Notes: generated from the letters alone by a model not told the origin. A DNA stretch of 64,000 nt from Acidimicrobiia bacterium (GCA_035462175.1 DATHUP010000051.1:4418-68417), one strand, 5' to 3'. Shown: positions 4,658 to 32,223, counted from the first letter of the stretch. Numbers and translations: made by a program.

Positions 4658-5345
4658 CACCAAGCGAACCGGCGCCGAGCGGGCGACGTACTGGAAGAGA
4701 GTGATGACACCCGACGAAGCGCGCGCGCACTACCTGGCATCGGGTTCGGACGCCCCGTCCGACCACGAGCGGCTGGATCTGATCCGTCACGTGCTGGGCG
4801 AAGAGGCGACCTGGGCCGAGCCACCTCCGCTCGTGGCCGACAGCCTTCTGGCGGCATTGGCGGTCGAGGGCGCTCCGGGGTTGTCTGCCACACCCGAACG
4901 TGGGTCCCGCTGGCCCCTGGCCGCTGCCGTGGCCGGGGGCATAGTCGCCGTCGTCGCCCTGGTGTTGAGCACGATCACCGTCCTCGACCAGGAGAGGGAC
5001 ACCGTCGTCGCCATGAGCGGCACCGATCTCGAGGCCTCTGCCTCCGGCCAGGCGGCCGTCAGGTCTACCGACGCCGGCTGGTGGATTCGCCTCGACGTCA
5101 CCGGTCTTTCCCCTGCGCCGGAGGGGAAGTACTACGAAGGCTGGGTGTGGAGCGATGACGACGATGGCGTGAGCATCGGCACCTTCCACCTCAGGGGAGG
5201 AGACGCACCGGTCGTTCTCTGGTCCGGGGTCCCCCTGGCCGATTATCCCTCGATCTGGGTGACCCTGGAGGACGAGAAGGGAGGCCCCGAGGCGTCAGAC
5301 CTGGTGGTCCTGACCGGGCGGCTCCCCGCGCCCCCCGACGACTGA
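4641..5345 (+). CDS. anti-sigma factor, RskA-like C-terminal domain
   Basis: Immediately follows and overlaps the ECF sigma gene. Has a single TM (WPLAAAVAGGIVAVVALVLSTI) and an extracytoplasmic domain (YYEGWVW..SIWVTLEDEKGGPEASDLVVLTG) typical of anti-sigma-K RskA. An alternative ATG lies at 4704. Confidence 0.7.
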   Translation: MWRRRDTKRTGAERATYWKRVMTPDEARAHYLASGSDAPSDHERLDLIRHVLGEEATWAEPPPLVADSLLAALAVEGAPGLSATPERGSRWPLAAAVAGGIVAVVALVLSTITVLDQERDTVVAMSGTDLEASASGQAAVRSTDAGWWIRLDVTGLSPAPEGKYYEGWVWSDDDDGVSIGTFHLRGGDAPVVLWSGVPLADYPSIWVTLEDEKGGPEASDLVVLTGRLPAPPDD

Positions 5346-5347
5346 GG

Positions 5348-5581
5348 TCATTCTCCCCGGAAGAACCGGGAGGCGAGGTTGAGGATGAGGGTTCCCACCA
5401 CGCTCACCACCAGCATCGAGGTGATCGGTATGAACACCGTCGTGCTCTCCGTCTCCCGTCGGATGTCGCCCGGAAGGTGCCCGAACCAGGAGAAGAGCCA
5501 GGGGAAGTAGCGAAGGATCACCCCGATCAAGACGATCAGGGCCCCGACCACGATCAGCAGCCCGGAGGTTCGTGTGCTCAT
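5348..5581 (-). CDS. DUF2905-type small membrane protein
   Basis: 77 aa with two TM segments flanking the HLPGDIRRE motif. The ATG at 5581 overlaps the stop of the upstream oxidoreductase (ATGA). The longer ORF-track extension is Arg/Gly-rich noise. Confidence 0.7.
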   Translation of the reverse strand: MSTRTSGLLIVVGALIVLIGVILRYFPWLFSWFGHLPGDIRRETESTTVFIPITSMLVVSVVGTLILNLASRFFRGE

Positions 5582-6594
5582 TCCGGGTGACGGATGACGA
5601 CCTTGCCTGTCTGCTCGCCGGCATCGAGGAGCTCCAGGGCCTTGGGCAGGTCGGCGAAGTCGAAGACCTCGCTCACCTGAGCCTTCGCTCCGCCTGTGGT
5701 CACCCAAGTGGCAGCTCGGGCGAACTGAGCGTGGTTGGCCATCGAAGACCCGACGAGATGAAGCTGGCGGAAGAAGAGCGTGGGCAGGGTCAGCTCCAAC
5801 TTGGCGCCGCTGGTGGCGCCGCAGATGGCGATGCGACCGCCTTTCTTGGCCGCCCGCATCGACTGGCGCATGGTGGCGGGACCGACGTTGTCGATGACGA
5901 CATCGGCTCCACCAGCGGCGGTCATCTCGGCGCCAAAGTCCGCTTCGGAGTCGAATCCGGCGACGGCCCCCTCGGCGACGGCCCAGTCGATCTTGTCCTT
6001 GGACCTGGAGGTGACATAGACCTTGGCCCGCATCGCGAGGCCCAGATGCAGTGCCGCCGCCGACACCCCTCCGCCGACACCGACCACGAGGAGGGTCTGA
6101 CCCGGTTTGAGCTCTGTCCTCTCGATCATGCGGAGGGCGGTGGCTGTGGCCAGGCCGAACGATCCCGCCACCTCCCAGGGCATCGCCTCGGGCTTGCGCA
6201 CTGCGTTGATCGTCGGGATCACGATCTTCTCGGCGAAGGTTCCGGGTCGATGTTCCCCCAGGATCTGAAAGGAGTCGCAATAGACGATGTCGTCGTTGCG
6301 GCAGTAGGCGCAGTGACCGCAGGAGAAAGACGGGTCGATTATGACCTCGTCGCCGATCTCGAATCCGGCAACTCCATCGCCGATCGCATCCACGTACCCC
6401 GCCCCGTCGGCACCGGTGGTGTGGGGGAGCTGCTTGGGTGCGGGAAGGCCTCGGGAGACCCAGAGGTCGAGGTGATTCAGCGCCGAGTGGCTGATCCGCA
6501 CCCGCACCTCGCCGGGCCCGGGCTCTGGCCCGTCGACATCGTTGAGCGCGAACGACTCGAGCCCTTTGGTGTCGGTGAGCTGCCAGGCCTTCAT
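5578..6594 (-). CDS. zinc-binding alcohol dehydrogenase / quinone oxidoreductase (MDR superfamily)
   Basis: MKAWQL.. N-terminus, GroES-like domain with CGHCAYCRNDD, Rossmann motif LLVVGVGGGVSAAALHLG. Start taken at internal ATG 6594. Confidence 0.85.
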   Translation of the reverse strand: MKAWQLTDTKGLESFALNDVDGPEPGPGEVRVRISHSALNHLDLWVSRGLPAPKQLPHTTGADGAGYVDAIGDGVAGFEIGDEVIIDPSFSCGHCAYCRNDDIVYCDSFQILGEHRPGTFAEKIVIPTINAVRKPEAMPWEVAGSFGLATATALRMIERTELKPGQTLLVVGVGGGVSAAALHLGLAMRAKVYVTSRSKDKIDWAVAEGAVAGFDSEADFGAEMTAAGGADVVIDNVGPATMRQSMRAAKKGGRIAICGATSGAKLELTLPTLFFRQLHLVGSSMANHAQFARAATWVTTGGAKAQVSEVFDFADLPKALELLDAGEQTGKVVIRHPE

Positions 6595-7063: not shown

Positions 7064-7074
7064 GTCCGCCGCCG

Positions 7075-7195
7075 CGAACCTGAGGTTCCCCGTCACGTAT
7101 TCGCTACGTACAGCCTCGAGTTCAGCACGGCCCTTTTTCGTCAGACGAACTCGAGAGCGTTCGTTGCACATATGCCACGGGGAACCTCAGGTTCG
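7075..7195. repeat. 121-bp element bounded by 19-bp perfect inverted repeats, with a nested hairpin
   Basis: CGAACCTGAGGTTCCCCGT (7075-7093) and its exact reverse complement (7177-7195). Each arm contains the palindrome GAACCTNAGGTTC. An inner inverted repeat is CTCGAGTTC (7115-7123) / GAACTCGAG (7147-7155). Lies in the thioesterase-dedA intergenic region. Confidence 0.6.
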
Positions 7196-7204
7196 GGGTA
7201 GACC

Positions 7205-7879
7205 ATGTCTACCGTGGTCGTGCTCCCCACGAGAAAGGTCTGCACGGTGTTGGATGGGTTGGTTGAGTGGGTGACTTCGGTCGTGGAGACCCTCGGCTAT
7301 GGGGGTGTCGCCTTTCTCGTCGCTCTGGAGAATCTGTTCCCCCCCATCCCGTCCGAAGTCGTTCTTCCCTTGGCCGGGTTCGTCGCCGCCGGGGGCCAGG
7401 CGTCGTACGTCGGCATGGTCGTCGCCGCCACCATTGGGTCGGTGGTGGGGGCCTTCGTCCTCTACGGGATCTCTGCCGCGATCGGTCCCATCCGTCTGCG
7501 CGCTCTCGTCGTGCGCTACGGCCGTTGGTTCGGTTTGGACGAAGCCGACCTCGATCGGACCGAGACCTGGTTCGACCGTCGCGCCAATGTCGCGGTCCTG
7601 GTCTGTCGCTGCATCCCGCTGATGCGGTCCCTGATCTCGATCCCGGCCGGCTTCCGGCGGATGGCCCTGGTCCCGTTCTCCCTCTACACCCTGCTCGGGA
7701 GTGTCGTCTGGAACGTTCTGCTGATCGGCGCCGGCTACCTGCTCGGGGAGAGATGGCACCAGGTCGAAGAGCCGCTCGAGTTGTTCCAGGCTGCGGTCCT
7801 CATCGCAATCGGAGTCGCCCTCGCCTGGTTCATCTGGCGGCGCATCGTCAGGCCCCGCCTCAGAAGCGCCGAGAGCTGA
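7205..7879 (+). CDS. DedA-family (SNARE-associated) membrane protein
   Basis: GYGGVAFLVALENLFPPIPSEVVLPLAGF and CRCIPLMRSLISIPAG are typical DedA motifs. 224 aa, polytopic. Confidence 0.85.
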   Translation: MSTVVVLPTRKVCTVLDGLVEWVTSVVETLGYGGVAFLVALENLFPPIPSEVVLPLAGFVAAGGQASYVGMVVAATIGSVVGAFVLYGISAAIGPIRLRALVVRYGRWFGLDEADLDRTETWFDRRANVAVLVCRCIPLMRSLISIPAGFRRMALVPFSLYTLLGSVVWNVLLIGAGYLLGERWHQVEEPLELFQAAVLIAIGVALAWFIWRRIVRPRLRSAES

Positions 7880-22786: not shown

Positions 22787-23251
22787 TCAGGCAGCAAGTC
22801 GCCCGGCGATCGCCTCGGCGAGCTCGGCGATCCCGGCGATCACGTCCGATGAGGGCTCCTCGAGACCGGAGAAGACGGTGACCGAGTACACCCGCCCGCC
22901 CGCCCTGACCACCAGCTCTCGGGCGCCGGTGTCGTTGGGGTAGAAGGCTTCGTCACCCAGATCGTCCACGTCGGTCACACCACCCCGGTTGTCCACGAAA
23001 CCTCGACGAGTCGAGTTCCAGTCGTCGGCCTCGCCGTAGTCGAACATGGTGACGGCGAGCACCGTCCCGCCCTCGATCGCGAAGTCGCAGTTGAGGAAGT
23101 CCCCTTCGACGCCTTCAGCCACGGTCCCTTCGAAGAAGCTCCCGACCATCTCGGCGTCGGCCAGATCGCAAGGTGAGGAGATCTCGTTCCCGCCGTCGCA
23201 GGCCACAGCCGACACGAGCACGAGGCCGACGAGCCAGATGGGTCTCGACAT
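22787..23251 (-). CDS. putative secreted lipoprotein
   Basis: Signal plus lipobox LVLVSAVACDGG. An acidic 154-aa protein with no recognised domain. Confidence 0.6.
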   Translation of the reverse strand: MSRPIWLVGLVLVSAVACDGGNEISSPCDLADAEMVGSFFEGTVAEGVEGDFLNCDFAIEGGTVLAVTMFDYGEADDWNSTRRGFVDNRGGVTDVDDLGDEAFYPNDTGARELVVRAGGRVYSVTVFSGLEEPSSDVIAGIAELAEAIAGRLAA

Positions 23252-23382
23252 TGTGTCCGAGAGTAGTGGTGCGCTTTGGGATGGGACCGAACTCGGAAAT
23301 GGGACTTTCTTGAGCCGGTCTTAGGGCGGTCTTGAGTCCCCGGGTGGCACCTTGACACTGGTCGAGAAAAGGAGTTGTCGCC

Positions 23383-23658
23383 ATGACCAAGGTTTGGATC
23401 GACGCCGACGCCTGCATGGGCGCCGGCACCTGCGCCCAGATCGTGTCCGATGTCTTTCAGGCACGGCACGATGGCACCTGGGCGGTCAAGGAGGAGTCGG
23501 CTCACTTCGGAGAGACCTTCGTGTTCGACGGGCTGGCCGGAGCTGGGCACGGCCCGGACGGTTTCGACGGAAAGGCCCGTATCCCGGAGAGCCTGGTGGA
23601 CCTCGTGGCCGAGGCCGCCGAAGAGTGCCCGGGCGAGTGCATCTTCGTGGAGCTCTAG
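23383..23658 (+). CDS. ferredoxin (single-cluster, actinobacterial 3Fe-4S/4Fe-4S type)
   Basis: IDADACMGAGTCAQIV (C-x5-C) and C-terminal ECPGECIFV (CP motif). RBS AAAGGAG lies upstream. The stop abuts the next start (TAGATG). Confidence 0.8.
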   Translation: MTKVWIDADACMGAGTCAQIVSDVFQARHDGTWAVKEESAHFGETFVFDGLAGAGHGPDGFDGKARIPESLVDLVAEAAEECPGECIFVEL

Positions 23659-24210
23659 ATGGGCCGGCCTGAACGCTCTCCAGCCGGAGCGAAGCGAAGC
23701 GTTTCGATCTCCGTGCTCGTCGGCCTGGTCTTGGTGCCCCTGAGCGCCTATGCCGCCACGATCCTGGTCGGCGACCGCACCCCGGCCGAATCGGAGGCGT
23801 CCATACCGGCGCCCGTGGCCACATCGGCGATTGTCACCGACTTCGCCACCCAGACCGCGAGCGCAGCCGACCTCGAAGCCGCCTGTGGCGATGCCGGGCT
23901 CGGCATGGTGTCTGCCGAGACAAGCGGCTCCATCGGCGGCATCGAGCAGGCGGCCCTGGACGCGCTGCGGGAGATCTGTGCCCAAGAAGGGATGCCCCTT
24001 CCCGGAAAGGCGGTGTCTCCACCCATCACCCAGACCGTGGTTCTCGCCGACAACGGGCCTGCCCCGAGGGTGGGGAGCGAGGTCGAGTGGGAGGTCGAAT
24101 ACGACGACGACTGGGACGACGACGACTGGGACGACGACGACTGGGACGACGACGACCGGGATGACGACGATCGGGATGACGACGATCGGGACGACGAGGA
24201 CGACGATTGA
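23659..24210 (+). CDS. membrane-anchored hypothetical protein with a polyacidic (DDDW)3(DDDR)3 C-terminal tail
   Basis: One N-terminal TM (VSISVLVGLVLVPLSAYAATILV), a roughly 110-aa unknown domain with 2 Cys, then YDDDWDDDDWDDDDWDDDDRDDDDRDDDDRDDEDDD. Confidence 0.6.
   Translation: MGRPERSPAGAKRSVSISVLVGLVLVPLSAYAATILVGDRTPAESEASIPAPVATSAIVTDFATQTASAADLEAACGDAGLGMVSAETSGSIGGIEQAALDALREICAQEGMPLPGKAVSPPITQTVVLADNGPAPRVGSEVEWEVEYDDDWDDDDWDDDDWDDDDRDDDDRDDDDRDDEDDD
24103..24207 (+). repeat. 15-nt tandem repeat, 7 units, in-frame within the CDS
   Basis: GACGACGACTGGGAC x3, then GACGACGACCGGGAT, GACGACGATCGGGAT, GACGACGATCGGGAC, and a degenerate GACGAGGACGACGAT. Confidence 0.9.
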
Positions 24211-24539
24211 GCCGTTTTCCCTTTCAGGTCGCGGCAGGGCTCCTCGTGCTGATCGCCGGGCTGGCAGTGGTCTACACCACCGTCGTCGCCCCGGAGCACG
24301 AGCAAGGCCCCGTCGTGCAGCGAGTGGTGTCCTCCTCGTCACCGACCCAGGTGGTCGAAATGCCCCCACCCACCCTGGAAGGAGTGGACCCGGTGGTGCA
24401 ACGCGTTCTGTTCGCGACCGGTAGGGCCGAGGCGTTCACCGCCGATGAGCTGACCCAGCTCCCGGCTGAGGTCGCCCGTGTCCTCGTGTTCTACGGGACA
24501 ACCATCACCGTCCCCATCGAGGCCGGAGCCGAGCCATGA
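24207..24539 (+). CDS. hypothetical single-TM protein
   Basis: TTG start overlaps the upstream stop (TTGA). One TM (VAAGLLVLIAGLAVVYTTVV) and an internal PVVQRV duplication. No domain recognised. Confidence 0.5.
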   Translation: MSRFPFQVAAGLLVLIAGLAVVYTTVVAPEHEQGPVVQRVVSSSSPTQVVEMPPPTLEGVDPVVQRVLFATGRAEAFTADELTQLPAEVARVLVFYGTTITVPIEAGAEP

Positions 24540-24874
24540 GCCGATTCGACGAGGGCCGGTGGAATCGGATCCTGATCTGGACCGGCGCAGCCCTGGCCTG
24601 GGGAACCGCCCTGATCGCAGCCCGGATAGACGAGAAGGCACAGCCAGAGCCGACCCAACCGTCGGAAGGCCAGATCGCCTCGGTCTTCCACCAATCGGCC
24701 CTGCCGGTGGCACCTGCCCAGGGCTTGGTGATACTGCGATTCACCCCCACGGAGACCCCCGAGCCTCGAGTGATCACGGTCGAGGTGGGGAGGGCCACAT
24801 CTCCGCAGTCACCCGCGCCGGCACCGGTGGTCACCCCACCGCCTGCACCCGAACCTTCGAGCAGTGGCTCATGA
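24536..24874 (+). CDS. hypothetical single-TM, Pro-rich protein
   Basis: ATGA overlap at both ends. One TM (ILIWTGAALAWGTALIAARI) and a P/T/E-rich tail. No domain recognised. Confidence 0.5.
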   Translation: MSRFDEGRWNRILIWTGAALAWGTALIAARIDEKAQPEPTQPSEGQIASVFHQSALPVAPAQGLVILRFTPTETPEPRVITVEVGRATSPQSPAPAPVVTPPPAPEPSSSGS

Positions 24875-25716
24875 TCCAGGTCACCTTCAATGCGATGGGT
24901 ACGGGGGTGGAGGCATGGTGCCCCGACGAGGCAGCGGCCGCCGGGCTGCGAGCGTGGTTCGAGGACGTCGAGGCGACGTGCAGCCGGTTTCGCCCTGATA
25001 GCGAATTGAGCCGGGTCAACCGGGCACCAGGCGCCGAAGTGGTCATCTCGCAGCGGTTCGCCGACGTGATGCGCGCTGCCGACAGGGCGCGAAGGCTGAC
25101 CGAGGGGCTCGTCGATGCCGGGGTGGGGGCGGCAGTGGCCGGTTGGGGGTACGACCGCAGCTTCGAGATGGTGCGGGGGCTGGACCAGGCCCCCTCGACC
25201 ATCCCGGCACCGCAGTGGGAGCTCCGTTCCCGGAATCTGCTCCGCCCTCCGCACACCCGCTTCGACCTGGGAGGCATCGCCAAGGGCTGGTCCTGTGATC
25301 GTGCCGTCGAGCTCGGGCTGGCCAGCGTCGTCTCCGCCGGCGGCGATATCAGAAGCAACGACCCGGAAACCACGGTTTCGGTTATCGATCCCTGGGGAGC
25401 GACCGCGGTTCGGATCCGGCTCGGAGAAGGGGGCCTGGCCACCAGCTCGACCGCGAGACGCCGATGGAAGGCGGGGACTCGCGAAGTCTCTCATGTGATC
25501 GATCCCAGGTCGATGGAGCCGGTCACCACGCCGATCCTGAGCGCGACTGTGGTCGCAGCATCGGCGGCGGATGCCGAGGCGGGGTCGAAAGCCGTGCTTC
25601 TCCATGGCGAGGACGGTCTGGCCTGGGCGGCGGAGCTCGACTGGATCGAGGCGGCGGTCGTCGTCTGGCACGACGGATCCGTCTATGCAACTCCCGGGAT
25701 CGAGGTGGCGGCGTGA
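24871..25716 (+). CDS. apbE: FAD:protein FMN transferase (ApbE family)
   Basis: Core ApbE sequence (SRFRPDSELSRVN, FDLGGIAKGW, GGDI, SGT-like region, HVIDPR). No signal peptide or lipobox at the N-terminus (MIQVTFNAMGT). Confidence 0.85.
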   Translation: MIQVTFNAMGTGVEAWCPDEAAAAGLRAWFEDVEATCSRFRPDSELSRVNRAPGAEVVISQRFADVMRAADRARRLTEGLVDAGVGAAVAGWGYDRSFEMVRGLDQAPSTIPAPQWELRSRNLLRPPHTRFDLGGIAKGWSCDRAVELGLASVVSAGGDIRSNDPETTVSVIDPWGATAVRIRLGEGGLATSSTARRRWKAGTREVSHVIDPRSMEPVTTPILSATVVAASAADAEAGSKAVLLHGEDGLAWAAELDWIEAAVVVWHDGSVYATPGIEVAA

Positions 25717-26279
25717 GTGTCGAATGGCTCGTCATCCGGGGATCAGGAGTGGCCGCTTTTGCCCTTCTCACCGCGGCCACGATCTGGGGTCTCCTGGTGA
25801 GCTCGAAGCTGCTGGGACGCCTGGTCAAGGCCAAGCCTCTCACCTGGTTCCACGAGTCGTTGGGTGTGGGGGCGTTGATCGCCACGATGGTCCACGTCGT
25901 GGTCCTCTCCGTCCACGACTTCCTCGACTTCAGCTGGGCCGAAATCCTGGTCCCGGGTGTCTCCGACTGGCGCCCTCTCGCGGTGGGGATGGGCATTGCC
26001 GCCTTCTACGGGATGGTGGTCGTGGCCGGCAGCTTCTACGTGAAGCGTTGGATAGGGCAGAAGCGGTGGCGCGCCATTCATTTCGCCTCCCTCGGCGTGT
26101 TCGTCTCGTCCCTGATCCACGGGATTTGGGCGGGAACCGACACCTCGAGCCCGATGATGATCGGTCTCTACCTGGGATCGGCCATCGTGGTGTTCAGCCT
26201 GGTCGCGCTTCGGATCACCGAGGACATGTCGAAGACTGCCGAGGCGGCGCGAGCGGCGAGCGAGAGGGCCGGCGTCTGA
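25713..26279 (+). CDS. ferric-reductase-like transmembrane (bis-heme b) protein
   Basis: GTG start overlaps the apbE stop (GTGA). Polytopic, with H-x13-H (FHESLGVGALIATMVH) and H-x12-H (IHFASLGVFVSSLIH) as in NOX/FRE/MsrQ-type domains. Confidence 0.75.
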   Translation: MSVEWLVIRGSGVAAFALLTAATIWGLLVSSKLLGRLVKAKPLTWFHESLGVGALIATMVHVVVLSVHDFLDFSWAEILVPGVSDWRPLAVGMGIAAFYGMVVVAGSFYVKRWIGQKRWRAIHFASLGVFVSSLIHGIWAGTDTSSPMMIGLYLGSAIVVFSLVALRITEDMSKTAEAARAASERAGV

Positions 26280-26876: not shown

Positions 26877-27083
26877 ATGTGCTACACGTGCGGATGCAAA
26901 CTGCCTTATGAGGATCACGGCGACCCGGCCAACATCGTGGAGGCCCACCTCGAGGCCGCCGGTCAGACCGACACCATCGAGGGCGCCGGAGTGGAGGCGG
27001 CCAAGGAGAACCTCCTCGAGCTGATCCAGCTGCAGAGAGACGCTGGCGACCTCTCAGGGCCAAAGCAGGACTACAACCAATGA
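26877..27083 (+). CDS. small Cys/His-rich hypothetical protein (68 aa)
   Basis: ATG is preceded by GAGGAGG. The N-terminus is MCYTCGCKLPYEDHGD, followed by an acidic helical-looking remainder. Confidence 0.6.
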   Translation: MCYTCGCKLPYEDHGDPANIVEAHLEAAGQTDTIEGAGVEAAKENLLELIQLQRDAGDLSGPKQDYNQ

Positions 27084-27136: not shown

Positions 27137-29446
27137 TCAGCGACTCCGCAGAGCCCGCCACACCCGCTCGGCGGTGAACGGGGTCTCGGTCAGCCAGATG
27201 CCGGTGGCGTCGTGGATGGCGTTGGCGATGGCGGGGATGGGGGCGTTGATCCCGATCTCGGCCACCGACTTGGCCCCCATCGGCCCGGTTGGCTCGAACG
27301 AATCGACCAGGATGGTCTCGATCCGGGGCAGGTCCTCGGGGCCGGGGATCTTGTAACGGGCGTAGTCCGTGGTCTTGAGCCTGCCCCAAGCGTCGAAGAC
27401 CATCTCCTCGAACAGGGCGTAGCCGATGCCGTTGGCCACCGCCCCCTCGACCTGGCCTTCCACCAATTTCGGGTTGATCGGAGTGCCGCAGTCGACGGCG
27501 GCGACGAAGCGGAGCACCTCCACGCGGCCGGTGTCCTCGTCGACGGCCACCTCGCAGAAAGCAGCTAGGAACGGGGGCGGCGAGAGCTCGGGGGTGAACG
27601 AGTGGATGGCTGCGATCTGCCGCTGCTCGGTGCCGTAGAGGGTCCGTATCCCGATTTCTGCGAGTGAGGCCGACGTCCCGTCCGCTGCGGTCACCCGCTC
27701 GTCCTCCAGGGTGAGTGACGCGGGCTCGACATCCAACATGTCGCCGGCCACCTCCAGGATCTGGGCACGCACGTCCTCGGCCGCCCTCGCCACCGCGGTT
27801 CCCGACACGTAGGTGGTCGAGCTGGCGTAGGCCCCGACGTCGAAGGGGGTGAGGTCGGTGTCCGATGAGATGACGACGATCTTGTCCAAGGGCACGGCGA
27901 GGACTTCGGCTGCGATCTGGCCGAGGATGGTGTCCGACCCTGTTCCGAGGTCGGTGGCGCCTACCGCCAGGTTGAACGAGCCGTCGTCGTTCATCTTGAT
28001 GGAGGCAGACCCCATGTCGATCAGGGGGATTCCTGAGCCCTGCATGTGAGTCGACATACCCACCCCGTGGACCCAGGATCCGTGGCGTTCCCGCTTGCCT
28101 CGCCTCTCGGTCCAGCCGATTCTCTCCGCGCCCTGCCGGATGCACTCGTCGAGGGCGCATGAGGTGATGGTCTGCTCCACTCCTTCCCGGCCCTCGCCCA
28201 GGGCGGCGAAGATGGGCGAGGTCTCCCCTTCGCGGATGTGATTGCGCATCCGCCACTCCAAGGCATCGATGCCGAGGTCGGCGGCGAGCCGGTCGACCGC
28301 CGTCTCCAGGGCGAAATAGCCCTGGGTGGCGCCATACCCCCGATAGGCGCCTGCCACCGGGAGGTTGGTGTAGACGACGTCCCCGGAGAACCTGACGTGG
28401 GGCGCCTTGTTGTACAGGGGCAGGGTCTTCGATCCCGCATTGGAGAGGACGGTGAGGCTGTGGGCCCCGTAGGCGCCTGTGTTGGAGAGGACCTCCATCT
28501 GGAGGGCATGGAGCCGGCCGTCTGCCTTGGCCCCGAGCTTGACCCGGACCCGCATCGGGTGCCTGGTCCGCGAGGAGACGAATTCCTGCTCCCGGCTGTA
28601 CAGCATCTGGGCCGGGCGCCCGGTCTGCAAGGTCACCCAGGCGGGCAGGTCCTCGATGAGCACCTCCTGTTTCACCCCGAAGCCGCCACCGATCCTGGGC
28701 TTGATCACCCTGATCCGGTGGATGGGGACGTCGAGCAGCATCCCGATGATGCGGCGCACGTGGAACGGGACCTGGGTGGAGGTCACGATGACGAGACGCC
28801 CGTTCTCGTCGAGATGGGTGGTGGCGATGTGAGGCTCGAGCGGGGCGTGCTGGCCGTATTGGGTCTCGGTGGTGACCTCGACCACCGCGTCCGATTCGGC
28901 GAAGCCTTGCTCGACGTCACCTGCGACGGCCACCACGTGGGCGGCGAGGTTCCTAGGTGCGTCCCAGACGTCGAGGGCGTCGTCCTCGTCGTGGATCACC
29001 GGCGCCCCCTCGGCGATGGCCTGGTCGATGGTCAGCACCGGCTCCAGCACCTCGTACTCGACCTCGATCGTCTCCAGTGCCCGTTGCGCTTCGAGCAGGG
29101 AGTCGGCGGCGACGGCGGCGACGCGGTCGCCCACCCAACGCACCTTTGTGTCGAACATCCGCGCGTCGTACGGCGAGGGTTCTGGGTATCCCTGGCCGGC
29201 GGTGGTGTATCGCTTCTCGGGGGTGTTCCGGTGGTCCAGGACCAGTGCCACCCCAGGCATCGCTTCGGCCCGTGTGGTGTCCATCGCCCTGATCCGGGCG
29301 TGAGCGTGAGGGCTGGTGAGCAGGGCGATGTGGAGCAGGTCGACGGGTTTGGCGAAGTCGTCGGCGAAGACCGGCCTCCCGGTGACCAGGCCGCGCCCGT
29401 CCACACGATGCAAGGAGATCCCTACGACGTCGTACTTGTCAGCCAT
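27137..29446 (-). CDS. xanthine dehydrogenase/aldehyde oxidase-family molybdopterin-binding large subunit
   Basis: 769 aa with IGGGFGVKQ, GAYRGYGATQG and C-terminal Moco-binding domains. Overlaps the 2Fe-2S subunit gene. Confidence 0.92.
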   Translation of the reverse strand: MADKYDVVGISLHRVDGRGLVTGRPVFADDFAKPVDLLHIALLTSPHAHARIRAMDTTRAEAMPGVALVLDHRNTPEKRYTTAGQGYPEPSPYDARMFDTKVRWVGDRVAAVAADSLLEAQRALETIEVEYEVLEPVLTIDQAIAEGAPVIHDEDDALDVWDAPRNLAAHVVAVAGDVEQGFAESDAVVEVTTETQYGQHAPLEPHIATTHLDENGRLVIVTSTQVPFHVRRIIGMLLDVPIHRIRVIKPRIGGGFGVKQEVLIEDLPAWVTLQTGRPAQMLYSREQEFVSSRTRHPMRVRVKLGAKADGRLHALQMEVLSNTGAYGAHSLTVLSNAGSKTLPLYNKAPHVRFSGDVVYTNLPVAGAYRGYGATQGYFALETAVDRLAADLGIDALEWRMRNHIREGETSPIFAALGEGREGVEQTITSCALDECIRQGAERIGWTERRGKRERHGSWVHGVGMSTHMQGSGIPLIDMGSASIKMNDDGSFNLAVGATDLGTGSDTILGQIAAEVLAVPLDKIVVISSDTDLTPFDVGAYASSTTYVSGTAVARAAEDVRAQILEVAGDMLDVEPASLTLEDERVTAADGTSASLAEIGIRTLYGTEQRQIAAIHSFTPELSPPPFLAAFCEVAVDEDTGRVEVLRFVAAVDCGTPINPKLVEGQVEGAVANGIGYALFEEMVFDAWGRLKTTDYARYKIPGPEDLPRIETILVDSFEPTGPMGAKSVAEIGINAPIPAIANAIHDATGIWLTETPFTAERVWRALRSR

Positions 29447-29918
29447 CGGCCTCGCCCTCCCTCATGATGGCGGCCGCCATCTCGATCGCATCGATCTGCT
29501 TGACATAGCCGGTGCAGCGACAGAGGTTGCCGGCGAGATAGGAACCGATCTCGTCACGGGTGGGCTCGGGGTTGCGGGCGAGGAGGTCGACGGCGGTGAG
29601 GATCATGGCGGGGATGCAGAACCCGCATTGAACGCCACCGGCGTCGAGCATCGTCTGCTGCAGCGGGTGATATGCCGCATCCTTTCCGTCCAGGCCGTCG
29701 ATCGTGGTGATCTCGCTGCCCTCGGCTTGTGCGGCGAACACCAGGCAAGAGGCGACGGCCCTCCCGTTGAGGAGCACGGCGCAGGCGCCGCAGTCGCCGT
29801 TGGCACAACCGTTCTTGACGCTGGTGTGACCGTTGGCACGGAGTGCCTCGAGCAAAGTGTCACCCGGCGCGAGCTCGAGGGGCTCACTCTTCCCGTTGAC
29901 GGTGAGGTCGACTCTCAT
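29439..29918 (-). CDS. (2Fe-2S)-binding small subunit of the molybdenum hydroxylase
   Basis: 159 aa with CANGDCGACAV and CGFCIPAM..CRCTGY cluster motifs. ATGA overlap with the FAD subunit gene. Confidence 0.92.
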   Translation of the reverse strand: MRVDLTVNGKSEPLELAPGDTLLEALRANGHTSVKNGCANGDCGACAVLLNGRAVASCLVFAAQAEGSEITTIDGLDGKDAAYHPLQQTMLDAGGVQCGFCIPAMILTAVDLLARNPEPTRDEIGSYLAGNLCRCTGYVKQIDAIEMAAAIMREGEADG

Positions 29919-30766
29919 CGGCTCAGCCTCTCCGCGACGGTGGTAAGGCACCGGGCGACCAGCACCTCGACCAGATGGCTGCGATATTCGGCCGAAGCCA
30001 CCCACCCCGTCCCGGTCGGAATCTCTTCGCCGGCGAGTCGGGAGGCGGTCTCGATGGCCGACGGGGACAGCCCATCGGACTTGACCGATGCCTCCGCCCG
30101 TGCCGCCCGTTGGGCGAGGTGTGGGGTCGCCCCACAGACGATCCGAACCTGGTCGACTCCTCCGGGGCCGAGATCCACCCGGCAGCATGCGTTGAGGATG
30201 GGGAAGTCGAAGGCGGTCCGGGCCTGTCGCTGGAAGGCCGCGGCCGAGCTCGCGGGGAGGGCGGGGAGCAGGACCTCGGTGAGGATGTGGGGCCGGGTGT
30301 TGTGTCCCTCGGAGAGGTAGCGGGACAGGGACATCGAGGTCTGGCCCCCATCCCGGTGGATGCGAACCTCGGCGTCGAGGGCGATGAGCACCGGCACCAC
30401 ATCGGAGAGCCGGCCTCTGGCGAGATGGCCGCCGATCGTGGCCGAGTTGCGAAGAAGCGGGCTGCCCACCTGCACCATCATCTCGGCGATGACTCCGCCG
30501 CCGTGGGCGACGAGCTGCTGATGCTCCAGGATCGCGGTCAGGGTTGCACCCGCGCCGATCTGGATCGATCCGTCGTCCTTGGCGGAGACGGCGGAGTCGA
30601 GGGCTTTCCTCAGGTCGACCAGTGTGGTCACCTCGGGTGGGGCGCTTATGGTGAGGTCGCTGCCACCGGAGAGGAGCCGGACGGTGGGGGCGCCGTCGGC
30701 GATGGATCGCCACGCCTCCTCGAGGGACTCGGGACGCAGATACTCGGTGATCCCGGGCCGGCTCAC
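29915..30766 (-). CDS. FAD-binding (CoxM/XdhB-like) medium subunit of the molybdenum hydroxylase
   Basis: FAD_binding_5-type sequence (LLSGGSDL.., ATIGGHLA) and a CO-dehydrogenase flavoprotein C-domain-like end. GTG start at 30766 overlaps the upstream stop (GTGA). Confidence 0.85.
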   Translation of the reverse strand: MSRPGITEYLRPESLEEAWRSIADGAPTVRLLSGGSDLTISAPPEVTTLVDLRKALDSAVSAKDDGSIQIGAGATLTAILEHQQLVAHGGGVIAEMMVQVGSPLLRNSATIGGHLARGRLSDVVPVLIALDAEVRIHRDGGQTSMSLSRYLSEGHNTRPHILTEVLLPALPASSAAAFQRQARTAFDFPILNACCRVDLGPGGVDQVRIVCGATPHLAQRAARAEASVKSDGLSPSAIETASRLAGEEIPTGTGWVASAEYRSHLVEVLVARCLTTVAERLSR

Positions 30767-32223
30767 GATGCGGCCGCCCTGTCGTTGAAGTCTTCGATGA
30801 GACGGTCGATCGGCCCGATCATGCCCTGGATCTCGGCCCAGTAGGTGGGGTCGTGCCACTGGCGATCCAGCTCGGCGACCTCCTTGCCCTGCTGTTCCAC
30901 CCAGGTGAAGTACTTGAGGTTGTGGATCCGGCGCCGGTCCCAGTGGCCCAGCTCCTCCACGTGCGCGGTCGACTCGCCGAGCAGCCAGCGCTGATGGGCG
31001 ACCGCGGCGTCGGTGGAGGTGAAGTCACCCAGCCGGTCCCGTTCCTCCACAAGCCGGCTCTGATACATGTCCATGGAGTCGGTGGCGATGGTGAGCACCA
31101 CGTCGTTGCTCCCCATCTCGAACCACTTGGCCAGCTTGATCGCCGAGAGCAGGTTGGCGATCGAGGAGATGCCCAGCTCGGGGAGCCGGGTCACCAGCGT
31201 CTCAGGCAAACCCCGGGAGACGAGGTAGTCGATGCCCGCCGGCTCGTTGAAGAGACGGATCAGGGCCATGGGCCCGGCATCGTCGATGCCGGTGACCACA
31301 TCGGTGTTGCGCACGTTGTGGATCCAGGGGACGTGCTTGTCGCCGATGCCCTCGATGCGGTGGCTGCCATAGCCGTTCCACATCAGCGTGGGGCACTGCA
31401 GGGCCTCGGAGGCGGCGACCTTCACCGTCGGGTAGTGCCGTCTGAGGAAGTCGGCCGAGGCGATGGTGCCCGCCGATCCCGTGGAGTAGGTAACTGCCGC
31501 CAGTCGGTCGCCGTCGCCGGCCACCGTCTCGAACACCTCGTGCATGGCGGGCCCGGTCACGGTGTAGTGCCACAGGTAGTTGCCGAATTCGTCGAATTGG
31601 TTGAAGACCACGATGTCCTCTCCCGAGGCGCGCAGCTCGGCGCACTTGTCGAAGATCTCCTTGACGTTGCTCTCCGAGCCCGGGGTCTTGATCACCTCTC
31701 CGGCGACGCTCTCCAGCCAGGCGAAGCGCTCGGCGCTCATCCCCTCGGGGAGGATGGCGATCGACTCGCAGGCGAGGAGGTTGGCGTCGTATGCCCCACC
31801 CCGGCAGTAGTTGCCGGTTGAGGGCCAGGCCGACTTCTGGGTGGTGGGGTCGAACTGGCCGGTGACGAGACGGGGAACAAGGCAGCCGAAGGCGGCGCCC
31901 ACCTTGTGGGCCCCGGTGGGGAACCATTTGCCGACCAGGGCCACGATCCTGGCGGCGACCCCGGTCAACTCCGAGGGGAACTCGATCCTGTTCACCTCAC
32001 CGAAGCGGCCACCCTTCTCCACGGGCTGGTTGTGCCAGGTGATCCGGAACAGGTTGAGCGGGTCGAGGTCCCAAAGCCCCACCGATTCGAGGCGACCCCC
32101 CACCTCAGCGGGGATGGTGCCCGGGTCGCGCATCTGGGCAAAGGTGGGGATGACGATGTCCCGTTCCCGTGCCCGCGAGATCGCGTGCTCGAGGCCGGCC
32201 TGGTCGATGGTGAGATCGATCAT
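30763..32223 (-). CDS. PLP-dependent enzyme, tryptophan-synthase-beta (fold type II) superfamily, 486 aa, function unknown
   Basis: PLP-lysine context FPTGAHKVGAAFG and glycine-rich loop STGSAGT. Long N- and C-terminal extensions relative to CysK. The real start, ATG 32223, overlaps the upstream stop (ATGA). The 879-aa ORF-track form is an artefact. Confidence 0.8.
   Translation of the reverse strand: MIDLTIDQAGLEHAISRARERDIVIPTFAQMRDPGTIPAEVGGRLESVGLWDLDPLNLFRITWHNQPVEKGGRFGEVNRIEFPSELTGVAARIVALVGKWFPTGAHKVGAAFGCLVPRLVTGQFDPTTQKSAWPSTGNYCRGGAYDANLLACESIAILPEGMSAERFAWLESVAGEVIKTPGSESNVKEIFDKCAELRASGEDIVVFNQFDEFGNYLWHYTVTGPAMHEVFETVAGDGDRLAAVTYSTGSAGTIASADFLRRHYPTVKVAASEALQCPTLMWNGYGSHRIEGIGDKHVPWIHNVRNTDVVTGIDDAGPMALIRLFNEPAGIDYLVSRGLPETLVTRLPELGISSIANLLSAIKLAKWFEMGSNDVVLTIATDSMDMYQSRLVEERDRLGDFTSTDAAVAHQRWLLGESTAHVEELGHWDRRRIHNLKYFTWVEQQGKEVAELDRQWHDPTYWAEIQGMIGPIDRLIEDFNDRAAAS

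Follow-up and report, generated by a model that had tools for sequence, protein, structure and literature searches.

The DNA analysed here, which we refer to throughout as the window, is a 64 kb stretch of an Acidimicrobiia contig from a soil metagenome, with a GC-content of 66%; the whole of the analysis is computational. Our concern is a block of six co-directional genes on the plus strand (23383–26279), each of which overlaps or abuts the next. In order, they encode a single-cluster ferredoxin (91 residues; 23383–23658), a secreted accessory protein that we term p2 (183 residues; 23659–24210), a single-pass membrane protein, p3 (110 residues; 24207–24539), the proposed flavin carrier, p4 (112 residues; 24536–24874), an ApbE-family transferase that moves flavin mononucleotide (FMN) from flavin adenine dinucleotide (FAD) to proteins (281 residues; 24871–25716), and a ferric-reductase-like bis-haem membrane protein of the MsrQ/NOX type (188 residues; 25713–26279). 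An earlier, sequence-only reading of the window had described the block as an operon and placed its junctions; all five lie where it put them (TAG/ATG at 23656–23661, TTGA at 24207–24210, ATGA at both 24536–24539 and 24871–24874, and GTGA at 25713–25716). Third-position GC-content (GC3) tracks the six called frames, switching frame at every junction, and an independent gene call on the source contig returned the same six genes. Because a divergent lipoprotein-like gene bounds the block upstream and a convergent AHSA1-family gene bounds it 34 nucleotides downstream, the operon is a self-contained unit. Scans for consensus promoters and terminators at the operon found nothing, and when evidence of transcription was sought the sequence was present only in DNA metagenome runs.

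The ApbE protein matches PF02424 with an E-value of 1.7e-43 (149.5 bits, cut-off 25.6; model positions 1–264 of 266 aligned); its match to the NCBIfam ApbE equivalog is partial (55 bits, cut-off 498). The PF02424 domain begins at residue 9, which leaves no space for either a signal peptide or a lipobox, as the sequence-only reading had maintained. The catalytic-base histidine, His208 (codon CAT at 25492–25494), stands within SHVIDP, which aligns with SHIIDP of the V. cholerae ApbE structure 6nxi (His257) and with the position occupied by glycine in the mutant structure 6nxj. The motifs SRF..DSEL, GYDRSFE, DLGGIAKG, GGD, ATS and H.IDP are kept across the clades described below, and on the basis of family and motifs the enzyme is predicted to transfer FMN to a serine or threonine of its target.

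The absence of an export signal is a property of the clade. At about 90 loci only five to six residues of ApbE precede F-x-A-M-G, the first strand of the domain, and no member of this set, which spans three phyla, carries a signal peptide, a hydrophobic N-terminus or a fused membrane anchor, as judged by eye and from in-frame stop codons. Where the frame upstream of ApbE is open it is an arginine-rich, out-of-frame reading of the small gene that precedes it, and contains no hydrophobic stretch. A longer ApbE starting from the GTG at 24478 (131 additional residues) was considered and rejected: GC3 favours the p4 frame, the extension lacks a hydrophobic segment, and several orthologues carry an in-frame stop shortly upstream of the ATG. 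In K. pneumoniae and in trypanosomatids, ApbE proteins without a signal peptide act in the cytoplasm (PMC12052999).

The bis-haem protein scores 24.7 bits against PF01794 (Ferric_reduct), below the cut-off of 28 bits, with relatives at L113 and L020 scoring 33.0 and 28.5 bits, respectively; a sequence search of the PDB found no relative. Its two pairs of potential haem ligands, H47-x13-H61 and H123-x12-H136, had already been picked out as a bis-haem signature by the sequence-only reading, and the four histidines prove to be invariant in an eight-sequence alignment drawn from Acidimicrobiia, Chloroflexota and Bacillus. We predict that the protein binds two b haems through these pairs. A reading of hydropathy and charge gives the window protein and its Bacillota relatives five membrane helices with the N-terminus outside, as against the six expected for the family; by hydropathy, the homologues in Chloroflexota have a sixth, N-terminal helix.

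Between p3 and ApbE lies p4, whose frame is supported by GC3. It begins with an invariant membrane helix (about residues 12–30, containing WTGAALAWGTA, after an equally invariant N-terminus MSRFDxxRWxRIL; across the orthologues, MSRFD..R..RI..WTGAALAWG), continues through a variable, proline-rich and disordered middle containing a single conserved strand, GLVILRFTP, and terminates in Ser109-Ser110-Gly111-Ser112-COOH (24860–24871, plus strand; codons AGC AGT GGC TCA), the proposed flavinylation tag. A first search, reaching down to 40% identity, returned 110 homologues, all of which end in S-x-G-S-COOH (SSGS in 86, SGGS in 16); none has a Pfam family or a functional name. In every one of the 110 the N-terminal flank of the helix is more positively charged than the C-terminal flank, which predicts an N-terminus inside the cell. 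A profile search of 1.8 billion representatives enlarged the family to 122 members (50% identity representatives), nearly all of whose full-length members end in [ST]-x-G-S; the exceptions are mostly truncated or frameshifted.

A terminal motif that runs into the start of the next gene might simply follow from the ATGA overlap, or from the presence of a ribosome-binding site. We reject this explanation. Orthologues vary the serine and glycine codons of the tag synonymously, the second position of the motif is variable among the 110 homologues, and at locus L018, where the small-tail gene (7072–7581) separates apbE from the haem-protein gene, the ending is KKSSGS all the same. The synonymous variation, together with persistence of the ending where no apbE follows, leads us to conclude that the motif is selected at the level of the protein.

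The published flavinylation motif is [S/T]GA[S/T] (PMC8238504, PMC12052999). The ending of p4, P-S-S-S-G-S, fits neither this nor the fuller D-x-x-[S/T]-G-A-[S/T], and the upstream aspartate of the latter is absent from the tails everywhere, including those of the sister clade introduced below. Taken together, the tails give [S/T]-x-x-S as the general C-terminal motif, spaced as in [S/T]-G-A-[S/T]; the S-S-G-S of the window would be a degenerate version. The last serine of p4, Ser112, is the presumed FMN acceptor.

The operon recurs in other genomes. A scan of species-representative genomes with ApbE found 12 close loci in Acidimicrobiia, ten of them with enough flanking sequence to be compared; the six genes occur in the same order in all ten, with ApbE proteins 66–82% identical, and the block is therefore not a chance juxtaposition. 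The sequence-only reading had left synteny in other genomes to be established. Four of the records that carry the six-gene cluster (L003, L006, L010 and L012) are titled 'uncultured Acidobacteriota'; their ApbE proteins are 66–71% identical to those of Acidimicrobiia genomes, and the label is probably wrong. A few frames are run-on or short, namely L012 4550–7404 (p3 through to the haem protein fused), L008 5667–6056 (the p4 stop read through) and L023 5902–6696 (a short ApbE), and these are probably assembly frameshifts rather than real fusions.

More distant matches in Chloroflexota and in a Bacillus keep the pairing of ApbE with the haem protein. Using as query a haem-protein alignment composed solely of Chloroflexota sequences, we obtained 228 confirmed matches and retained 80, in 71 of which ApbE is directly upstream of the haem protein; the loci include cultured Chloroflexus and Herpetosiphon and assemblies of Roseiflexus. 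The open reading frame (ORF) that ends at the start of apbE in these loci encodes a small protein whose N-terminus is strongly positive and whose single membrane helix is followed by a proline-rich tail ending in T-x-S-S-R (for example ARTRSSR, ITRTQSSR and STHSSR). The pattern [ST]-x-[STG]-S falls within three residues of the C-terminus in 45 of 46 non-identical Chloroflexota proteins, compared with 71 of 903 background ORFs (8%), and the N-terminal flank is the more positive in 43 of the 46. A small-tail gene, a signal-less ApbE and the haem protein are found together also in Geobacillus, Heyndrickxia and Bacillus, with tails ending in NRTRRS in Geobacillus and IRGHAS in Heyndrickxia.

A sister clade within Acidimicrobiales and Actinomycetes, represented by L023 and nine further loci (L111–L119), has the order small gene, signal-less ApbE, haem protein, followed by a NuoF-like protein (with Complex1_51K and NADH_4Fe-4S domains) and a Fer4_15 ferredoxin. 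Here the small proteins end in VSSGAS, VSTGAS, VQSGAS or VRSGAS, with VSSGASS in one locus: the published [S/T]GA[S/T] motif occupies the same place in the same architecture. Two of these loci carry tandem tail proteins ahead of a single ApbE (L117, 2177–2518 and 2590–3060; L119, 2120–2461 and 2533–3060), with endings KVSSGAS and PVQSGAS or PVRSGAS, which suggests that the gene for the proposed carrier has been duplicated.

One locus in Chloroflexia, L020, goes further. A single gene directly before apbE (4845–5906) encodes the haem protein with a C-terminal extension, in which a basic linker leads to a seventh membrane helix and then to a tail rich in Ser and Thr that ends in VVTGHS. Haem protein and tail are thus physically joined at this locus. 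With its six helices the haem domain finishes on the cytoplasmic side, and the seventh therefore places the tail outside the cell, in agreement with the charge asymmetry.

The two remaining small proteins, p2 and p3, are the other places where a flavin acceptor might be sought. The signal peptide of p2 has a conserved cleavage-type site of the A-x-A form (LVPLSAYA, followed by A). Residues 69–109 form a three-helix domain in which Cys76 is invariant and Cys107 nearly so, and the protein finishes in an aspartate-rich tail (about nucleotides 24094–24207) reading Y-DDDW-(DDDDW)2-(DDDDR)3-DDEDDD-COOH, which is encoded by a 15-nucleotide tandem repeat (24101–24201; 6.7 copies, 93% match). The length and composition of this tail differ widely among orthologues, from Asp/Trp/Arg in the window to His/Gly/Arg/Asp (HGRHGGDDDD) in others. 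All 59 homologues are unnamed and without a Pfam family. The AlphaFold model contains helices only (pLDDT, the local confidence score, about 85), the remainder being disordered, and a Foldseek search with it gave no significant match.

The window p2 has no match to the PepSY profile PF03413. In Chloroflexota the product of the corresponding gene, upstream of the small-tail gene, is anchored in the membrane and contains a stretch that resembles PepSY at a score below threshold (for L013 5088–5618, E = 0.05 and 14 bits, cut-off 24), together with an Asp/Glu/His tail ending in DD. A strict rule recognised this acidic ending at 44 of 56 loci and inspection by eye at the remainder; it occurs in 6% of background ORFs. 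The Geobacillus cluster also includes a secreted protein with an acidic stretch. At L018 coiled-coil proteins lie upstream of apbE, the last of them with an acidic tail, and a response regulator/histidine kinase pair follows.

By flanking charge, p3 has its N-terminus inside. Its C-terminal part is short, helical and conserved (VDPxVQRVL...EL..LPxEVARVL), and its low-confidence AlphaFold model shows a membrane helix and short helices with no beta sheet. The 15 homologues belong to no family, and p3 is confined to this Acidimicrobiia clade, having no counterpart in the clusters of Chloroflexota, Bacillota or the sister clade. The sequence-only reading had paired p3 with p4 as two proline-rich proteins of about 110 residues with one membrane segment each; the description suits p4 well, while p3 is much less rich in proline.

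That reading had also found neither an FMN-binding domain nor a canonical acceptor motif among the neighbours of ApbE, and this was borne out on every count. No family in Pfam or NCBIfam matches p2, p3 or p4, none of which is a standard FMN-binding protein in profile searches; FMN_bind, DUF2271 and DUF3570 are absent from all cluster proteins scanned, in the window and in the related loci examined; and D..[ST]GA[ST] occurs in no ORF of the window. The looser [ST]GA[ST] has four matches in ORFs of the window, and the two that were checked, a histidine kinase and an endonuclease/phosphatase-family protein, were set aside. Its choice of nearest acceptor fared less well: ETSGSIGG is indeed present in p2, but orthologues read EMEGSITD, EANHSISG or EAGESISD. 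A Y-G-A-T near the C-terminus of close p3 orthologues was rejected likewise, as it becomes HGAA, QGIT or HDAA across the ten loci. On these comparisons the extreme C-terminus of p4 is the best candidate for the acceptor, ahead of the ETSGSIGG of p2.

The first gene of the operon, preceded at 7 nucleotides by an AAGGAG ribosome-binding site, encodes a protein that matches Fer4_15 (E = 2e-13; 51.2 bits, cut-off 22.4), in agreement with the single-cluster ferredoxin originally proposed. Its cysteines are arranged as C11-x2-A-x2-C17 ... C82-P, and a three-cysteine pattern of this kind (C-x2-A-x2-C...C-P) is typical of [3Fe-4S] ferredoxins. The gene holds the same position in the ten Acidimicrobiia loci, and a Fer4_15 ferredoxin accompanies the NuoF-like protein in the sister clade, which supports a place on the donor side; the ferredoxin is the probable cytoplasmic electron donor.

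Upstream of this gene, three CTTRR direct repeats spaced 11 nucleotides apart (23309–23335, plus strand; CTTGAgccggtCTTAGggcggtCTTGA) are followed about 20 nucleotides downstream by a fourth, CTTGA, at about 23356. The block is kept upstream of the ferredoxin gene in aligned Acidimicrobiia loci, and the window contains the triple repeat a single time, where 100 shuffles lead one to expect none. Its form makes it a candidate binding site for a response regulator of the OmpR/PhoB type. A nearby TGGCAC was ruled out as a sigma-54 site on spacing; to our knowledge, moreover, Actinomycetota lack sigma-54. OmpR-family regulator genes do follow the cluster in Geobacillus and at one Chloroflexota locus. 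In Geobacillus (L108 2802–3470 and L109 4547–5215) the gene comes directly after the cluster, and the best NCBIfam matches of its product, RppA (247 bits, cut-off 250) and a heavy-metal regulator family, both fall just under their cut-offs.

The divergent gene upstream (22787–23251, minus strand) encodes a 154-residue protein with a lipoprotein-type N-terminus (LVSAVAC) and no Pfam family, and adjoins the operon only in the closest relative, L001. Downstream, a 68-residue ORF (26877–27083, plus strand) beginning MCYTCGCKLPYEDHGD has a Cys/His-rich N-terminus and no Pfam family; it is identical on other contigs that include the region, and lies between the operon and a molybdenum hydroxylase cluster. 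This cluster (27137–30859, minus strand) is a trio of the xanthine-dehydrogenase/carbon-monoxide-dehydrogenase type, with molybdopterin, [2Fe-2S] and FAD-binding subunits according to precomputed Pfam families, and is not kept beside the operon in other genomes.

What might such an operon do? The sequence-only reading had invoked the general logic of transmembrane electron transfer, in which ApbE and a bis-haem protein serve a covalent flavin acceptor, and that logic holds. We consider it probable, with appreciable room for doubt, that the proteins of the operon conduct electrons across the membrane to an outer redox centre consisting of FMN attached to Ser112 of the tethered, disordered tail of p4. 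ApbE would move FMN from FAD onto Ser112, and the tail, a minimal flavin tag of natural origin, would take over the part that a folded FMN-binding domain plays elsewhere. The cytoplasmic ferredoxin would give electrons to the inner haem, the two haems would carry them across the membrane, and the outer haem would reduce the tethered FMN, which would in turn hand electrons to an acceptor on the outer face. The chemistry of a terminal tag is plausible, given that an engineered, truncated ApbE in the cytosol of E. coli fully flavinylates short unstructured C-terminal tags (PMC9400968; PMC12052999). With some 80 residues of disordered chain, the tether could conceivably carry the flavin into or across the cell wall, to be recharged by the bis-haem protein beneath, a suggestion that we make tentatively.

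The order of events is more doubtful than the destination. ApbE appears to be cytoplasmic while the tail ends up outside, and this leads us to favour flavinylation in the cytoplasm followed by export, as a possibility that falls well short of being established. Such an order fits a substrate that is unfolded, a site that would be exported after the rest of the chain, a protein that is short, and p4 and apbE genes that are translationally coupled; p4 would be short enough to be completed before it is inserted into the membrane. As to the terminal substrate, which is the weakest step and a lead only, the acidic and His-rich tails of p2 and its counterparts, the ferric-reductase ancestry of the haem protein and the near-threshold, heavy-metal-type regulator in Geobacillus hint at a metal cation, for example Fe(III) or Cu(II).

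Several observations weigh against this scheme. The compartments conflict: the tail is predicted to lie outside, and ApbE lacks a signal peptide at about 90 loci. We know of no precedent for the export of a chain that is already flavinylated. At L020 the tail follows a seven-helix protein that is probably inserted co-translationally, which would give a cytoplasmic enzyme little time to act. The S-S-G-S of the window departs from [S/T]GA[S/T] at both the Gly and the Ala positions, with no upstream aspartate, and published changes of Gly to Ala and of Ala to Val in the motif halve flavinylation by a different ApbE. The haem protein of the window scores under its Pfam cut-off, calls of topology and of signal peptides are based on hydropathy and charge counts, and a role as metal reductase has only tail composition, family ancestry and the near-threshold Geobacillus regulator to recommend it.

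The conflict of compartments could be removed by supposing that the same serine of p4 is flavinylated outside the cell, ApbE being exported by an unconventional route (piggy-back or leaderless, for example) and an FAD exporter being encoded elsewhere. Flavinylation in the envelope, where well studied, is always extracytoplasmic and the work of an exported ApbE; the p4 tail is predicted to be outside; and access from the cytoplasm to the fused tail of L020 looks difficult. Nevertheless, we regard this as unlikely: it has to contend with about 90 ApbE proteins from three phyla without a hydrophobic N-terminus or fused membrane anchor, with p2, p3 and p4 in which no twin-arginine motif is visible, and with a cluster that includes no flavin exporter. 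Alternatively, ApbE may have nothing to do with p4 and may serve a cytoplasmic FMN-binding target encoded elsewhere, for instance a soluble enzyme of the fumarate-reductase type, the conserved end of p4 being used for something else, perhaps docking, processing or glycosylation. Known cytoplasmic ApbE proteins do modify soluble reductases, S-S-G-S is not canonical, and only 64 kb of this genome is visible. Yet the small gene, apbE and the haem-protein gene are adjacent across three phyla, a canonical S-G-A-S stands at the same spot in the sister clade, and at L020 a single gene immediately ahead of apbE encodes both tail and haem protein, all of which makes a distant target distinctly improbable.

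Two further explanations would do without a tag altogether. ApbE-family proteins bind FAD, and one homologue from a spirochaete reportedly hydrolyses it; the window holds no canonical target, and ApbE might accordingly be no transferase but a helper on the cytoplasmic face that binds or hydrolyses FAD and furnishes or holds non-covalent flavin for the haem protein, no protein being flavinylated. The catalytic-base histidine and the transferase motifs are conserved, however, and a helper would leave unexplained both the invariant serine-ending tails and the S-G-A-S of the sister clade; we judge it very improbable. That p2 or p3 is a cryptic, much diverged FMN-binding domain, making this an ordinary MsrQ-like flavinylation cluster, is harder still to credit, and we give it almost no weight. 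Both proteins are predicted to face outward, and the ETSGSIGG of p2 and the Y-G-A-T near the end of close p3 orthologues bear some resemblance to acceptors. But neither protein matches Pfam or NCBIfam, AlphaFold offers short helices and no alpha/beta fold, the p2 model finds nothing in Foldseek (the p3 model being too poor to search), neither ETSGS nor YGAT is conserved across the ten genome loci, and neither p2 nor p3 occurs in the cluster as found in Bacillota and the sister clade.

Returning to the proposal that p4 carries the flavin, the closest described relatives are the MsrQ-like clusters (PMC8238504; models in PMC11334425). These too, mostly in Actinobacteria, place apbE beside a bis-haem protein of the PF01794 type, draw on cytoplasmic donors that can include a NuoF-like protein (present here in the sister clade), and are proposed to route electrons from the cytoplasm to a covalent flavin outside. 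The operon would work in the same manner, but fails three of the features that define such clusters: they have a gene or fusion for an FMN-binding domain, where we propose a four-residue C-terminal tag on a disordered, tethered protein; their ApbE is exported, where that of the window has no signal peptide; and they include an NAD(P)H module, where the window cluster has a ferredoxin only, and a haem protein without an NAD-binding domain. Their haem protein, moreover, has six helices as opposed to the five predicted in this clade. The survey of Meheust et al. (2021) retained a gene only if a signal peptide or lipidation site was predicted for it (PMC8238504), and because signal-less ApbE proteins were thereby discarded the present system went undescribed in it. 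A full-text search of the literature, itself of incomplete coverage, found no report of this cluster or of a natural C-terminal flavin tag.

Other known systems share single elements with the one proposed. The synthetic Flavin-tag (PMC9400968; PMC12052999) likewise needs only a short unstructured terminal peptide and a signal-less cytoplasmic ApbE, but it supplies the canonical D-x-x-S-G-A-T within 7–12 residues, whereas the proposed natural tails have no aspartate, differ from one another where the canonical motif has Gly and Ala (S-x-G-S, T-R-S-S-R, T-R-R-S), and stand at the very end of the chain. The flavin-based extracellular electron transfer of Listeria (PMC9973259) also belongs to single-membrane bacteria and passes electrons outward through flavinylated surface proteins, as we propose here; it does so with a lipoprotein ApbE (FmnB) on the outside, folded PplA domains, a quinone route and export of FAD by an energy-coupling-factor (ECF) transporter, none of which is found in the present cluster. 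The fumarate reductase systems of Klebsiella and the trypanosomatids (PMC12052999) rely on a signal-less ApbE acting in the cytoplasm, as we infer for this clade, but the targets there are soluble and contain a folded FMN-binding domain, in contrast to the membrane and secreted partners encoded here. In flavinylated FMN reductases (PMC11334425) the acceptor serine also lies in a C-terminal extension; that extension, however, folds back on a flavoprotein with an FMN pocket, and p4 has no predicted folded domain.

Together, these data suggest that single-membrane bacteria of three phyla possess a type of ApbE target not previously described. Current mining rules look for FMN_bind, DUF2271, DUF3570 and exported ApbE proteins, and a tag without a domain, paired with an ApbE without a signal, escapes both; the system could account for some of the genomes reported to carry an 'orphan' apbE (PMC8238504). 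Natural pairs of tag and enzyme (S-x-G-S, T-R-S-S-R, S-G-A-S) could also yield shorter or orthogonal versions of Flavin-tag labelling. The hosts include abundant and little-studied Acidimicrobiia and Chloroflexota of soils and sediments, along with the culturable Chloroflexus, Roseiflexus, Herpetosiphon, Oscillochloris and Geobacillus.

If the proposal is correct, four terminal residues on a disordered chain would suffice as the site of a redox cofactor, and among natural ApbE substrates p4 would be the first to lack a folded domain and the first to be flavinylated before export. Flavinylation in that order would free single-membrane bacteria from having to export FAD: even those with thick walls could place a flavin outside the cell without secreting it, and would have at their disposal a route of extracellular electron transfer that needs no FAD exporter.

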